Assembly (NCBI GenBank): GCA_021300535.1
Contig: JAJTED010000019.1
Location: forward strand, 6,367-70,366
Source of the DNA: Planctomycetaceae bacterium
GTDB lineage: Bacteria; Planctomycetota; Planctomycetia; Pirellulales; UBA1268
Length of the DNA stretch: 64,000 nucleotides
Direction of reading: 5' to 3'
Below the pieces are notes generated by a model. It was not told the origin of the DNA. It saw only the letters and a list, made by a program, of their open reading frames with translations, and made no database searches. Below, piece by piece: positions 32,887-39,559 of the stretch; within the stretch, counting starts at the first letter, position 1, and each line of letters starts with the position of its first letter. The translations under genes were made by a program, and so were the position numbers.

Positions 32887-32932
32887 TACTCCCGACAGGG
32901 ATCGAACCTGTAACCTTCAGCTCCGGAGGCTG
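32887..32932 (-). repeat. attL: a 46-bp perfect copy of the 3' part of tRNA-Arg(CCG)
   Basis: tactcccgacagggatcgaacctgtaaccttcagctccggaggctg is identical to 39486..39531 (offset 6599 bp). It covers the tRNA from the anticodon stem to the 3' end. Confidence 0.9.
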
Positions 32933-32942
32933 CGGGCAGGGT

Positions 32943-33173
32943 GTGACTTCGCCCGGGAAAACAAGGGGTGAAACGACACCGGCCGCGGAGTGTTGCACCC
33001 CACGTTGCACCCGATCCGCGAATCGGCTCGACGTGCTCGCCCGCGCCGTGGCCCTGGTCGCCGCCATGCCCGGGCTGACGGACGACGAGCGCGTGGCCCT
33101 CGTCGAGCGGCTCGCCGCAGGCACCGACGTCGCCACGGCGAACGACGCCACGCCGAACGACGCCACAGCCTGA
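32943..33173 (+). CDS. hypothetical ORF that would be fused in frame to the integrase after excision
   Basis: GTG-initiated 76-codon ORF. It is in the same frame as the int ORF when read across a reconstituted attP (see findings). It ends in an ANDATPNDATA tandem repeat. Confidence 0.3.
   Translation: MTSPGKTRGETTPAAECCTPRCTRSANRLDVLARAVALVAAMPGLTDDERVALVERLAAGTDVATANDATPNDATA
32992..33012 (+). promoter_or_regulatory. candidate integrase arm-type sites (2x GTTGCACCC, 12-bp phasing), left arm
   Basis: GTTGCACCC occurs at 32992-33000 and 33004-33012, about 60 bp inside attL. The same 9-mer pair, with the same spacing and orientation, lies near attR. Confidence 0.5.
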
Positions 33174-33395
33174 CCGCCGACGGCCTGCGGGCCTGGTCGC
33201 CGCCGGCGGCACGGCCGCCACCTTCCCGGCCGCGGCCGTCTCGCAGACGACCTCGTGGTCGAGATCACGCCGCCGTCGGGGGCGCCCGCACGGCCACCAC
33301 GGTGCTCACCACGGTGCTCGTGATCGACCTGCTGCCGCAGGCCGCCACGGCCGGCGAGATCGAGCACGAACCGCCGCCAAAGATTTTTGACCGAC

Positions 33396-33478
33396 GGCCT
33401 ATAGGGCAAATCGGTGGGGCCTTCGTAGCGTGGCGTTCGCGATGGAATCCAAAGGTGGCCTATATGTCAAGTCGGTGG
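33396..33478 (+). promoter_or_regulatory. two 22-bp direct repeats upstream of the first island gene (candidate operator or promoter elements)
   Basis: ggcctatagggcaaatcggtgg (33396-33417) and ggcctatatgtcaagtcggtgg (33457-33478) match at 19 of 22 positions, 61 bp apart. They sit in a locally AT-richer stretch just upstream of the alpA-like gene. Confidence 0.4.
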
Positions 33479-33528
33479 CCTCCCCATAGGTTCCGGTCGT
33501 GATGACTTCACCCCTCGGAGAGAACGCC

Positions 33529-36684: not shown

Positions 36685-37029
36685 ATGACGGATGACAACC
36701 CCCAGGAGATCGACGGTATGAACACCACGAAGATCGTGCGAAAGACGACAGACAAGTGGCTCGCAGCCTTGGCAGACGACCTCGGCATGGTCGCCGGTTG
36801 CATCCGCGAGGCACTGGACGACCTCGACGGCATTCTGGCAGGGGCCACGGCCGCCGATCCCATGGTCTGCAAGGCCGCCACGGCCAAGCTCGTGGCGCAG
36901 GCGGCGGAGTTGGATAGCTGCTCCGCCGACCTCGTGGTACTCGCAGATCAAATGCAGGCCGCTACGCCACCGGCACGGCCGCAGGCCGGGAAGGGCCGGC
37001 GGAGCGGAGCCGCGAGGGCCAGACGGTGA
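36685..37029 (+). CDS. hypothetical island protein
   Basis: Helical, Ala/Asp-rich ORF in the operon orientation. The start (36685 or 36718) is uncertain and I recognised no family. Confidence 0.3.
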   Translation: MTDDNPQEIDGMNTTKIVRKTTDKWLAALADDLGMVAGCIREALDDLDGILAGATAADPMVCKAATAKLVAQAAELDSCSADLVVLADQMQAATPPARPQAGKGRRSGAARARR

Positions 37030-37154
37030 CCCCGGCGTGAGATCGACCCCAGGGTACCTTTCCAGGGAAATGGCTATCTCCCCGGAGGACCCCACGCTAC
37101 CACCAGGCGAGCGACAGATCGTAGACCCCGTTTTCCCGAAAGTGAGGTGACAGC

Positions 37155-37610
37155 ATGGCCAACAAAGGACCGCTCGCAGGATCGCATTCAGCCCGCCGCC
37201 GATGGCATGGCGACAGCCCCTCGCGGACTTCGACGCGCGGGGCCGCCGGCTCTCCGCGGATGCCGGCCGACATTGGGAAGATCCCCGAAGCGGCGGCATT
37301 CTGGCGGCGGCTGGCGCCGATCCTGATCGACGACGGGCGGCTGACGCCTGATCGGGCGGACGCATTCGCCACGCTGGCCCGGCTCCATGCCACGCGGGTG
37401 GAACTGCGGTCGCTGCTCGCGCAGCAAGGCTTCACGGTCCAGACGAAGGACGGCACCACGGCCAACCCGGTCGCCCGGCTCCTGCGGAATGCCGAGACGG
37501 ACTGGCTCTCGATCGCCCGAGACTTCGGCCTGACGCCGGGGGCCGCCGCGAGGCTTCCGGCATTCGACGCGAATGACGAGGAGGAAGATGCGCTGGCCAA
37601 GTTCCTGTGA
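37155..37610 (+). CDS. phage terminase small subunit, P27 family
   Basis: PEAAAFWRRLAPILIDDGRLTPDRADAFATLARLHATRVELRSLLAQQGFTVQTKDGTTANPVARLLRNAETDWLSIARDFGLTPGAAARL follows the Terminase_4 (P27) consensus (W..l...L...g.l...D...l..y; nP; elGLTP..R.rl). An alternative start is at 37260. Confidence 0.7.
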   Translation: MANKGPLAGSHSARRRWHGDSPSRTSTRGAAGSPRMPADIGKIPEAAAFWRRLAPILIDDGRLTPDRADAFATLARLHATRVELRSLLAQQGFTVQTKDGTTANPVARLLRNAETDWLSIARDFGLTPGAAARLPAFDANDEEEDALAKFL

Positions 37611-37801
37611 CGCTCGCACCGCAGGCCGCCACGGCCTGAAAAACGGAGGGTATCCAAGGCCGGCCAGCAGGCTGATCGGCCCGCAGATCGAATCCTAGAG
37701 GCCCGTTCCCGGCCGCCGTGGCCGGAAGGGCACGAGATAGATGCCGAACCGCCCAACGAGCCGATGTAGGCTGCGGGCAGACCAAAAGGGAGAACACCAC
37801 C

Positions 37802-39532
37802 ATGGGGATCGTCTTGCGGCCCTACGTCACCAGGCCGATGCCAGACGGGGCGAGGATCGTCACCCGCACCGTGATCGAGAAGGGCAAGCGGATCCGGCGG
37901 CCGTTCGCAGTCTGGACCGATGCCGACGGGAACACCCACGAAGCTCGTGCGACTGGGCCAAAGGCCAAGCGGGCCGGGATCGTCGAGCGGTGCCGCACCT
38001 ACTGGGCGCAGTACCTCGACGCCGACGGCCGGAAGCGGCGAGTATCGACTGGATGCCGGGACCGAACCGCGGCCCGCGCCGTGCTGGCCGACCTGGAGCG
38101 GCGCGCGGAGAAGGTCCGCAGCGGGATCGTGACGGCGGCGGAGGCAAACGTCGGGGATCATGCCGACGCCCCGATCCTCGACCACGTCGAGGCCTACGTC
38201 GAGGCGCTCGCGGGGAGCCGTGGCAAGGGGGCTCACCGCACCGTCGCCCCGCGGCACGTCGCTGGTGTGCGGCACGCCCTGTACCTCGTCGTTGAGGCCT
38301 GCGGATGGCATCGGCTCCGCGACCTGGATCGCGGCGCCGTCGAGCGGTGGGCCACGCGGCTGCTCGACGGGCCGGAGCCCCCGGCTCCGCGGACTGTGAA
38401 CGCGAAGCTCGCGGCACTGTGCGCGTGGGGGAACTGGCTCGTCGTCGCCGGCCGGCTCGTCGCCAACCCATTCGGCCGACTGCGGAAACTCGATGAAGCG
38501 GATGACGTCCGCCGCCAGCGGCGGGCACTGACCACCGACGAGTTGCGGCGGCTGCTCACGGTGGCACGCCTGCGGCCCGTGGCGGAGTTTGGCAGGCCGA
38601 CGATCCGTGTGGTCGATGCAGGCCGCCCCCGGGCCTCACGGGCGACGTGGAAGCGTGCTCCCCTCACGATCGACACGATCGAGGCCGCCGCCGCCGCGGG
38701 CCGGGACCGCGTGCGGCCCGATGTCGCCGCGCGGCTCGACGCTGCGGGCCGTGAGCGGGCACTGGTCTACGCCGTGCTCGTGACGACCGGACTGCGGCGC
38801 GGCGAACTGGCCGCGCTGACCGTGGCCGACGTGCTCCTCGACAACGACCCACCGGTGATCGTGCTGCCGGGGGCCGACGCGAAGAACGGCCAGCGGGCGA
38901 CGCTGCCGCTGCGGGCCGACGTGGCCGCGGAGTTGCGGGCCTGGATCGAGGATCGCACCGCGGCGGCCTGCGGGCGACGAGTCGGGATCGCAGGCACCAC
39001 GGCACCGCCGACGTCCATGCCGCTGTTCAACGTGCCCGTGGCCATGGTCAAGATCCTCGATCGTGACCTGGTCGCGGCCGGCATCCCCAAGCGGGATGAC
39101 CGGGGCCGCACCGTAGACGTCCATGCCCTACGCCACACCTTCGCGTCGCACCTGGTCGCCGCCGGCGTGGCCCCCCGGACGGCACAAGCGGCCCTGCGGC
39201 ACTCGTCGATCACGTTGACCATGCAGGCCTACACCGACCCGCGGCTCCTCGACGTGGCTGGAGCGCTGGACGCCCTGCCGGCTCTCCCGACGGCCGGCCC
39301 GGCCCCGGCGGAGGCCCGGGCGACTGGCACCACGGGCGCGAAAAATGTTGCACCCAATGTTGCACCCAATTCTGCCGGAAGGGGTCGGAAACGGTCGGTT
39401 TCTGACGGTTGCGACAGAATTGACGACGACCACCAGACGACGCGATCGGCCCTAAAAACAAGGGCTTTTCCGGCTGAAACGCAAGTACTCCCGACAGGGA
39501 TCGAACCTGTAACCTTCAGCTCCGGAGGCTGA
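37802..39532 (+). CDS. int: tyrosine-type site-specific integrase
   Basis: TTGLRRGELAAL (Arg I), HALRHTFASHL (HxxR) and LRHSSITLTMQAYTD (His/Tyr nucleophile box). An SD-like aagggaga lies before the ATG. The last 47 nt lie inside the att core/tRNA, and the stop TGA (39530-39532) straddles the core boundary. Confidence 0.85.
   Translation: MGIVLRPYVTRPMPDGARIVTRTVIEKGKRIRRPFAVWTDADGNTHEARATGPKAKRAGIVERCRTYWAQYLDADGRKRRVSTGCRDRTAARAVLADLERRAEKVRSGIVTAAEANVGDHADAPILDHVEAYVEALAGSRGKGAHRTVAPRHVAGVRHALYLVVEACGWHRLRDLDRGAVERWATRLLDGPEPPAPRTVNAKLAALCAWGNWLVVAGRLVANPFGRLRKLDEADDVRRQRRALTTDELRRLLTVARLRPVAEFGRPTIRVVDAGRPRASRATWKRAPLTIDTIEAAAAAGRDRVRPDVAARLDAAGRERALVYAVLVTTGLRRGELAALTVADVLLDNDPPVIVLPGADAKNGQRATLPLRADVAAELRAWIEDRTAAACGRRVGIAGTTAPPTSMPLFNVPVAMVKILDRDLVAAGIPKRDDRGRTVDVHALRHTFASHLVAAGVAPRTAQAALRHSSITLTMQAYTDPRLLDVAGALDALPALPTAGPAPAEARATGTTGAKNVAPNVAPNSAGRGRKRSVSDGCDRIDDDHQTTRSALKTRAFPAETQVLPTGIEPVTFSSGG
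39347..39367 (+). promoter_or_regulatory. candidate integrase arm-type sites (2x GTTGCACCC, 12-bp phasing), right arm
   Basis: GTTGCACCC occurs at 39347-39355 and 39359-39367 (aatgttgcaccc x2), about 120 bp inside attR. Orientation and spacing match the left-arm pair. Confidence 0.5.
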
Positions 39533-39559
39533 CGCTCTATCCAATTGAGCTACGGGAGC
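39486..39559 (-). tRNA. tRNA-Arg (anticodon CCG), 74 nt, no encoded CCA
   Basis: Manual fold: acceptor GCTCCCG/CGGGAGT (G1-U72), D arm GCTC-AATTGGATA-GAGC, anticodon arm TCAGC-CTCCGGA-GCTGA, variable AGGTT, T arm ACAGG-TTCGATC-CCTGT, discriminator A. Confidence 0.9.

Follow-up and report, generated by a model that had tools for sequence, protein, structure and literature searches.

A tRNA-Arg-integrated island of a Pirellulales-type planctomycete, probably a self-replicating phage satellite with its own small terminase

We analysed a stretch of 64,000 nucleotides from contig JAJTED010000019.1 of a Planctomycetaceae bacterium (assembly GCA_021300535.1, positions 6,367 to 70,366 of the forward strand), hereafter called the window. 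All coordinates refer to its first letter, and the loci used for comparison carry L numbers. The segment 32887-39531, here called the island, is very probably a phage satellite that integrates into the chromosome and replicates itself; its host is a freshwater planctomycete of the Pirellulales type. A preliminary description, made from the sequence without database searches, had proposed an element with the gene set of the phage-inducible chromosomal islands (PICIs), bracketed by a perfect 46-bp duplication of the 3' part of a tRNA gene.

The repeat finder confirmed this duplication: 32887-32932 and 39486-39531 form a perfect direct repeat of 46 bp, which extends to 50 bp with one mismatch in the longer version 32883-32932 / 39482-39531. 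The right copy, the attR core, is the 3' part of an intact tRNA-Arg(CCG) on the minus strand (39485-39559; ARAGORN; Rfam tRNA, 69 bits). This was the only tRNA found, and the Rfam scan of the island returned nothing beyond it. The repeat corresponds to tRNA-Arg positions 29-74, and its left copy, a partial 3' copy of the tRNA gene, is the attL core; the spacing from attL to attR is 6599 bp. The arm sites claimed earlier are present as well. The arm-type 9-mer GTTGCACCC forms one tandem pair at 32992-33012, about 60 bp inside attL, and a second one at 39347-39367, about 120 bp inside attR, with five copies in the window compared to 0.38 expected. The fifth copy, at 62860-62868, lies far from the island and is probably due to chance. 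As read from the sequence, a AAACAAGGG box stands on both sides of the att core, with its left copy at about 32957-32968. Directly left of attL, a 24-nt inverted repeat (32795-32878, 92% complementary, 36-nt spacer) probably terminates transcription of the host gene next to it. In base composition and GC3, the island is not distinguishable from its host.

The preliminary description listed seven open reading frames (ORFs). We count about ten, all of them intact and located on the plus strand, and searched them against Pfam (curated cut-offs) and PHROGs. The ATGA coupling noted before was verified in four overlaps, at 33765, 34346, 34591, and 35967. Two genes encode AlpA/excisionase-type helix-turn-helix (HTH) proteins of 79 aa each, as proposed. 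HTH2 (34110-34349) reaches 36.6 bits against HTH_17 (PF12728, which the PICMI model discussed below uses as an AlpA profile) and thus exceeds the cut-off of 27; HTH1 (33529-33768) stays below it with 21.4 bits, yet matches the excisionase/regulator PHROG 66 at 1.7e-8. No Pfam or PHROG family was matched by orf84 (33765-34019), which encodes a small Cys/His-containing protein and overlaps HTH1 by ATGA, by orf82 (34346-34594), which is ATGA-coupled at both ends, or by orf103 and orf76, described below.

The product of 34591-35970 (459 aa) is a DnaB/RepA-like replicative helicase of superfamily 4 (SF4) with intact Walker motifs (DnaB_C 4.4e-15; AAA_25 4.1e-13; PHROG 19 2.6e-28), in agreement with the earlier assignment. 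Homologues with 41-42% identity occur in some phages, and the comparison with L001 reveals a predominance of third-position synonymous changes, i.e., purifying selection. The adjacent gene (35967-36512) encodes a protein of 181 aa without a Pfam family above cut-off. Its AlphaFold model (pLDDT >90 for residues 45-155) was matched by Foldseek to MarR/ArsR/CodY winged-helix domains, and weak matches to the phage initiator PHROGs 270/391 were obtained in addition. We regard it as a winged-helix DNA-binding protein and putative replication initiator; its gene lies invariably 3' of the helicase in relatives. Three exact iterons ACAACCCGACA at 36495, 36528, and 36551 (spacing 33 and 23 nt; overall 36495-36561), the first of which overlaps the 3' end of the winged-helix gene, represent a putative origin. 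The winged helix-turn-helix (wHTH) protein and its three iterons had both been predicted from the sequence. No iteron was found outside the origin within the window. The 11-mers are kept, spacing included, in L001 (76% nucleotide identity overall) and L005, and are absent from 152 other loci. Between origin and terS, orf103 (36718-37029) encodes a helical protein conserved in L005, L155-L164, and L191.

The small terminase (TerS) gene at 37155-37610 is preceded by a good Shine-Dalgarno sequence, GAGGTGA. It encodes a Terminase_4 protein of 151 aa (P27/HK97-like; 58.6 bits at a cut-off of 24.7; PHROG 83 1.1e-16), which retains 23 of the 23 invariant columns of our family alignment A1. Both the P27-family assignment and that of the helicase thereby passed the profile searches, and the other gene assignments likewise stood up to profile or structure comparison. 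PDB sequence searches with TerS and the winged-helix protein gave no useful match. The last gene encodes a tyrosine integrase (Phage_integrase 3.1e-16; PHROG 1 1.2e-37), whose catalytic R/H-x-x-R/H/Y residues are present as read from the sequence. Its start, originally placed at 37718, was replaced by the ATG at 37802, such that the ORF spans 37802-39532 and codes for 576 aa in the integrated state. It was described as abutting the tRNA, but in fact runs into it: the 3' end of the ORF overlaps the P arm (2x GTTGCACCC), the att core, and the tRNA.

Neither the island nor the 64-kb window contains a phmmer homologue of the large terminase (TerL), portal, prohead protease, or HNH, and hence the window holds no helper prophage. 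When all island ORFs were scanned against Pfam and PHROGs, no capsid, structural, or lysis genes were detected, which bears out the earlier statement that such genes are missing. In the same databases no relaxase, type IV coupling protein (T4CP), or FtsK-like transfer gene was matched. No primase domain was found in the island, the replication genes being the DnaB_C/AAA_25 helicase and the winged-helix protein.

Joined island ends were found in L191, a k141 metagenome contig of 6740 bp (ENA analysis ERZ27247984) with an exact terminal overlap of 141 bp. The unit measures 6599 bp, the same as the distance between attL and attR. The contig matches the island at 99.8-99.98% identity and holds a single core between the right and left island ends, i.e., the attP junction. 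Integrated copies are present in sister samples, which include ERZ27248021, ERZ27247979, ERZ27247994, and ERZ27247995. Junction-bearing sequences had been named as a check in the preliminary description, and this circular contig of exactly one island length provides such a case; a second attP-type junction, L192, stems from an unrelated run. A circle and a head-to-tail multimer are indistinguishable from the assembly, and either requires site-specific recombination.

In the joined form, attP lies inside one continuous ORF, composed of window 32931-33173 together with 37802-39532 and located at 383-2353 in L191 and at 1651-3606 in L192. The part contributed by the left end, orf76 (32931-33173, plus strand), contains the P' arm (AAACAAGGG and 2x GTTGCACCC) and would form a C-terminal extension of the integrase in the excised element. 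The int frame is open through the att core in the window island, in L045, in L029+L041, and in the natural junction L064; in L073 it is open from the core onward. The left-end peptide is conserved in divergent islands (…LARAVALVA.MPG..DDER.ALVERL…), with a third-codon-position excess of substitutions. Gene callers predicted the fused proteins of 656 aa and 651 aa on the attP contigs, and both are members of the integrase 90% cluster, the 656-aa protein being the one on L191; the attP form of 656 aa that we had predicted differed from the real one by one residue. Judged from these reading frames, integration appears to shorten the integrase from 656 to 576 aa by about 80 residues downstream of the catalytic Tyr, the remainder being orf76.

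TerS homologues with 39-48% identity in three planctomycete metagenome-assembled genomes (MAGs) sit in TerS-TerL-portal-protease modules, and an HNH gene precedes two of the three. Of the 80 IMG/VR loci that encode a TerS relative, all 80 have TerL next to it, whereas TerL is missing from every island. Divergence among the island terS genes is mostly third-position and synonymous, which indicates purifying selection, as for the helicase. The island TerS proteins belong to at least two lineages, 31-38% identical to each other, and each lineage is nearer to different phage TerS proteins (46-53%). The position of the gene also varies: it immediately precedes int in the window type and adjoins attL in the L045 type. 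Since at least two lineages differ in their nearest phages and in their backbone positions, terS was captured more than once. The phage TerS proteins closest to that of the island (45-49% identity) occur in HK97-like planctomycete phages.

Within this TerS family, one common nucleotide (CCTC...), located 45-50 nt upstream of terS, is the first base of at least 15 IMG/VR phage contigs. Internal copies of this end in phages read ...GACCCCACGCNN followed by CCTC..., the end falling between the two, with a GGGGTGG box before. The pile-up of contig starts appears to mark the physical genome end (cos) of these phages, and would thereby map the cos end of a widespread freshwater HK97-like phage group of about 30-35 kb. 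Contigs with the common start are L076, L078, L079, L081, L088, L091, L094, L095, L098, L129, L152, and others. In the island, a cos-like site with the same layout as in the phages (alignment A3) spans 37047-37110 on the plus strand. Its elements are a G-box (about 37047-37057) and GACCCCACGCT (37088-37098; 57 nt ahead of the TerS ATG), and a cut is predicted after 37099. The 11-mer GACCCCACGCT is unique in the window and, among 192 loci, was detected only in the phages L006, L075, and L077 and in island copies. These are the three phages with the closest TerS, and they carry it 52-53 nt before this gene. The L005 variant of the site matches the cos region of phage L174 at 25 of 25 nt.

A further signal common to island and phages lies upstream of the first operon, where a 22-nt element is present in two copies (33396-33417 and 33457-33478, plus strand). 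Within the window, where 0 copies of the pattern CTATAKNNNMANNCGGYGG would be expected, these two are the only ones. Across 190 loci, the pattern is restricted to one phage clade, the window island type, and L001, where two copies precede the regulatory operon, and it is invariably found on the coding strand. In the phages, the portal gene and the major capsid gene each have it directly in front, and in L086 a third late gene does as well. A 115-aa HTH gene sits immediately before the first motif of L086 and is a candidate for the factor that would bind CTATAG-N7-CGGTGG. An exact 19-mer search recovered 26 additional IMG/VR loci, and TerL, portal, or capsid genes identify all 26 as phages. The eight phage loci with TerS nearest to that of the island all carry the motif and take the top ranks (Mann-Whitney p = 9e-4); L103, L107, L148, and L152, which rank lower in TerS similarity, carry it too. 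The motif is absent from the second island lineage (L045, L043, L029, L053) and its nearest phages L007 and L008. TerS similarity, cos box, and late-gene motif are independent characters that converge on one HK97-like clade, which we therefore consider the candidate helper clade. One of its members, L006, is a prophage in a Planctomycetaceae MAG, and the longest phage contigs of the family measure 30-35.6 kb. Motif-bearing phages include the IMG/VR UViGs 3300032093_000855, 3300031787_000521, and 3300049595_002631 and a prophage in JAIXPT010000413.1. The cos-like and late-gene signals had not been part of the preliminary description.

In order to place the island in a family, metagenome contigs were scanned with the 44-nt att core, which yielded 54 freshwater loci. 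This comparison of the tRNA-Arg locus, suggested already in the preliminary description, revealed empty sites as well as syntenic and allelic islands at the same tRNA. The site is empty in L036 and L062. In L046/L026, flanks 93% identical to window 31789-32794 and 39467-43700 lack the island and enclose a 1.4-kb segment, which encodes a ParE/RelE-like toxin-antitoxin pair and an IS630-like transposase with a frameshift; about 110 bp at this site resemble the right end of L041-type islands. Synteny of the flanks in relatives is kept (271-aa gene, tRNA-Arg, glycosyltransferase), and occupancy differs among hosts whose flanks are 84-94% identical. The tRNA-Arg gene is a hotspot for islands of 6.6-7.1 kb with an orphan TerS: at least five divergent islands of this size have the same reduced gene set, and the integrases of the other tRNA-Arg islands are 64-69% identical to that of the window. 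L045 (7005 bp, both cores exact), L029+L041 (about 6.8 kb), and L043 (about 7.1 kb), with integrases 64-66% identical to the window's, each encode TerS, an HTH_17 gene, a DnaB_C/AAA_25 helicase, and a wHTH protein. By sequence inspection they also encode a protein resembling archaeo-eukaryotic primase (AEP) primase-polymerases, which matched no Pfam family. L053, with a host flank 94% identical to the window's, combines TerS with a RepB_primase-DUF3987 primase-helicase and another integrase. L065 comprises 4275 bp between two att cores, with window-type left and right ends and without an integrase; probably, it has decayed or can be mobilised in trans. Its cargo consists of a truncated MmeI-like restriction-modification gene, a bPH_2/GYF protein, and one more gene (compare L052 and L058).

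Further relatives reveal a modular mosaicism. L005, from a Pirellulales MAG (JBILVO010000218.1), is 95.7% identical to window 34690-37805, which covers helicase, wHTH, orf103, and TerS. The match ends exactly at the integrase ATG and is followed by an unrelated tyrosine integrase (L005 3113-4510), its own arm repeats, and tRNA-Val(CAC). This is a clean swap of the integration module on an otherwise near-identical element. The distant helicase/wHTH relatives L017, L018/L019, and L020 are small integrase-bearing islands. L017 has no TerS, and its positions 1716-1775 represent a 60-nt, 88% copy of the HNH-terS intergenic (cos) region of prophage L008 (1965-2024); this suggests that hijacking by cos alone is a strategy within the family.

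Some loci have a composite structure. L001, the closest non-identical relative, contains a second integrase and, at 2592-3104 on the minus strand, a gp10-like head-tail/neck gene (PHROG 5, 7.9e-8) with stretches of 88-89% nucleotide identity to motif-bearing phages; it may be a composite or tandem element. The integrase of L064 (2808 bp) matches that of L045 at 99.8% identity; next come the att core and a 93%-similar left end with a divergent TerS. This locus is either an attP or the junction of two different islands in tandem. L158 (ENA ERZ27272069 k141_1305065; 6396 bp) carries an attP-type junction for the tRNA-Val integrase, in the order TerS, tRNA-Val-type integrase, 22 nt of the tRNA-Val 3' end, island left end, regulatory and replication genes, and TerS. 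It was dropped as primary attP evidence, since its overlapping TerS-region copies are just 94.5% identical and a tRNA(CAT)-like fragment stands at its head; it is a tandem, mosaic, or chimeric assembly.

Helper-dependent packaging best explains the characters in common with one phage clade, the circular form, and the orphan TerS throughout the family, and we infer that the island is packaged in this way. In the mechanism that we propose, the late programme of an HK97-like helper would activate both copies of the motif in front of the island operon and thereby switch on the replication genes and the AlpA-type proteins, which would serve in excision or regulation. Int, together with an AlpA-type directionality factor, would excise the island via the 46-bp core. 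The winged-helix protein would bind the three iterons and load the island's DnaB-like helicase, with priming by host or helper enzymes. Island TerS may then bind the cos-like site just upstream of its gene and recruit the helper's TerL and HNH nuclease, such that island concatemers would be cut and packed into helper capsids. Because no capsid-size gene is recognisable, we assume that about five units (33 kb) fill a full-size head. Five units amount to 33 kb for this island and to 34-35.5 kb for other complete islands, compared to phage contigs of 30-35.6 kb, which makes pentamer full-head packaging plausible. After injection, Int would re-integrate the island at the tRNA.

Several observations weigh against a packaged satellite. 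No virion-derived island sequence was found, and IMG/VR has no match to the helicase or to the inner junction of attL. The closest phage TerS proteins reach just 45-49% identity, so that the true helper stays a candidate clade. To the right of the predicted cut, similarity of the island cos region to the phages is limited to the 11-mer and the architecture, and the proposed role of the motif as late promoter or activator site has its sole basis in the position of the motif in phages. The helicase/wHTH relatives L018-L020 lack TerS and a recognised cos, the island has no primase and no recognisable master repressor, and the circular contig L191 could equally come from a chromosomal tandem duplication.

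Part of these observations would also be expected of a plasmid-like integrative episome, which excises and replicates, but is not packaged. TerS, cos, and motif would then be phage leftovers, or serve phage interference by titrating the helper terminase. Excision/circularisation and the replicon are supported by data whereas encapsidation is deduced, the same helicase/wHTH replicon occurs in L018-L020 without TerS, and IMG/VR does not contain the island. However, purifying selection acts on TerS, which was gained on at least two occasions and at different positions; it comes with cos-like sites, and one relative carries cos alone. Moreover, no alternative transfer route is visible, as neither relaxase nor T4CP nor FtsK-like genes matched in Pfam or PHROGs, and interference alone leaves unexplained why the island operon lies behind a phage late-gene motif. 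We consider an unpackaged episome rather unlikely. The chance is much smaller still that the island is fixed in the chromosome and immobile today, the circular contig being a tandem duplication or an assembly artefact. A head-to-tail tandem does give the same assembly graph as a circle, and tandem or composite arrays occur at such sites (L064, L158), but tandem arrays themselves need integrase-mediated integration of a circular copy. The variable occupancy among hosts with 84-94% identical flanks speaks against fixation as well, and the exchange of the integrase/att module, with the rest 96% conserved, indicates recent activity.

Least credible of all is a decayed remnant of a larger prophage which lost its structural genes. 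The integrase, xis-like, helicase, and terS genes all have phage homologues, the helicase at 41-42% identity in some phages, as such an origin would predict. Nevertheless, both att sites are perfect, all ORFs are intact, and the circular form comprises exactly one unit, which upholds the initial view of an intact element. Morphogenesis or lysis genes, or vestiges of them, were not found between the att sites. The segment is not the tail of a much larger prophage either: the relatives measure 6.6-7.1 kb with both att sites, apart from the 4.3-kb integrase-less derivative, and the same reduced gene set recurs in at least five divergent islands. Finally, terS never has a terL beside it in the islands and always does in the phages, and its divergence is dominated by synonymous changes. 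Att sites, ORFs, circular unit, and family had already largely refuted the decayed prophage, and it was rejected. The phage satellite remains the preferred reading, and we compare it with known satellites in the following.

PICIs are defined in SatelliteFinder by integrase, alpA/merR/stl regulation, primase-replicase, capsid morphogenesis genes, and small terminase, with no other structural or lysis genes (PMC10085698). The island carries the integrase, the AlpA-type regulator (HTH_17 36.6 bits), and the small terminase (by Terminase_4), and shares with PICIs the absence of other structural and lysis genes; it has no primase-replicase and no capsid morphogenesis gene. With SaPI-type PICIs in particular, it shares integrase, AlpA-type regulator, iteron replicon, small terminase, specific att site, and modular mosaicism. 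In contrast to the Pri-Rep of PICIs, its replicon is composed of a DnaB-like helicase and a winged-helix protein, and its TerS is, unlike in SaPI-type PICIs, of the Terminase_4/HK97 cos type with a cos-like site. Its size of 6.6 kb compares with a PICI median of 9.5 kb (PMC10085698). The term PICI-like, used in the preliminary description, holds for the logic of the island and not for family membership, given the missing primase-replicase and capsid-morphogenesis genes and the different TerS/cos type.

The PICMIs of Vibrionaceae, of about 6 kb, combine int, alpA, and a replication gene with ATGA overlaps and have no capsid remodelling genes, and PICMI115 was shown experimentally to be packaged as an 8-mer concatemer in full-size heads (PMC10803314). 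Size, int, alpA, and ATGA overlaps are alike in the island, whereas our 5-mer is a model and the 8-mer of PICMI115 was observed. PICMIs use a DUF3987/DUF5906 primase and integrate beside fis, and the text of that study never mentions a terminase (PMC10803314). Of their mandatory genes, the island has int and alpA; DUF3987/DUF5906 and adjacency to fis are lacking, the site being tRNA-Arg. The marine VEIMEs contain integrase, AlpA, primase/helicase, and sometimes a TerS nearest to that of co-occurring phages; they have no capsid genes and are packaged as concatemers, and Planctomycetota are not among their listed hosts (PMC9618062). VEIMEs are defined by recovery from virus particles, whereas the island is known here from sequence alone and has no match in IMG/VR.

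P4 uses a helper-type cos site and expresses genes behind helper-late-like promoters that respond to the late activator of the helper; it is not known to have a terminase gene and remodels the capsid. The island follows the same logic of helper-type cos and late-promoter mimicry without homology to the P4 core genes: alpha primase-helicase, sid, psu, and delta had no Pfam/PHROG match among the island ORFs. The cos-packaged SaPIs, e.g., SaPIbov5, carry a helper-like cos site used with HNH-dependent HK97-type terminases. Their use of cos is like that of the island, and the TerS-less L017 likewise carries a phage-like cos region alone; the island, however, also encodes its own TerS, and its host and genes are unrelated. 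Integration remodels a gene in SSV1-type split integrases as well as in the integration-dependent immunity of mycobacteriophages BPs and Brujita. In these systems as in the island, attP lies inside an ORF and integration alters the C-terminus of the protein, while the island loses just the 80-aa tail of its integrase.

Membership in the PICI, P4-like, and PICMI families fails on their defining genes. The logic of the island combines known strategies, namely the private TerS of the SaPI type with the cos and late-promoter mimicry of P4, and the family itself is new. Satellites have been described mostly in Proteobacteria and Firmicutes, including the family of P4-like satellites of P2, in a survey whose text does not mention planctomycetes (PMC10085698). 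Our full-text literature search for phage satellites in Planctomycetota found no report, in line with the preliminary description, which knew of none. The island is thus apparently the first phage satellite described for this phylum.

A joint reading of all features can be put forward tentatively, and we regard it as possible rather than probable. It would comprise a new satellite family of Planctomycetota with P4-style mimicry of cos and late elements, a SaPI-style private, HNH-dependent TerS of the HK97 type, and concatemers of about five units in unmodified heads. In addition, removal of the integrase tail would act as a switch of the integration state, through directionality or protein stability. 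The apparent size quantisation, 6.6-7.1 kb being about one fifth of 33-35 kb, is offered as a hypothesis, and the arrangement of attP within int as a further one.

Phage satellites shape phage-host dynamics and gene flow, those characterised belong nearly all to Proteobacteria and Firmicutes, and the phage biology of Planctomycetota is barely explored. The islands at one tRNA hotspot offer a tractable family with several divergent members, a candidate helper clade pinned by three independent sequence characters, and a specific proposed mechanism, in which a private TerS would act together with mimics of the cos site and of the late motif. The recurrent capture of cos-terS and the existence of a cos-only relative mirror the strategies of SaPIs and P4 in an unrelated lineage, which suggests that these solutions are convergent and general.

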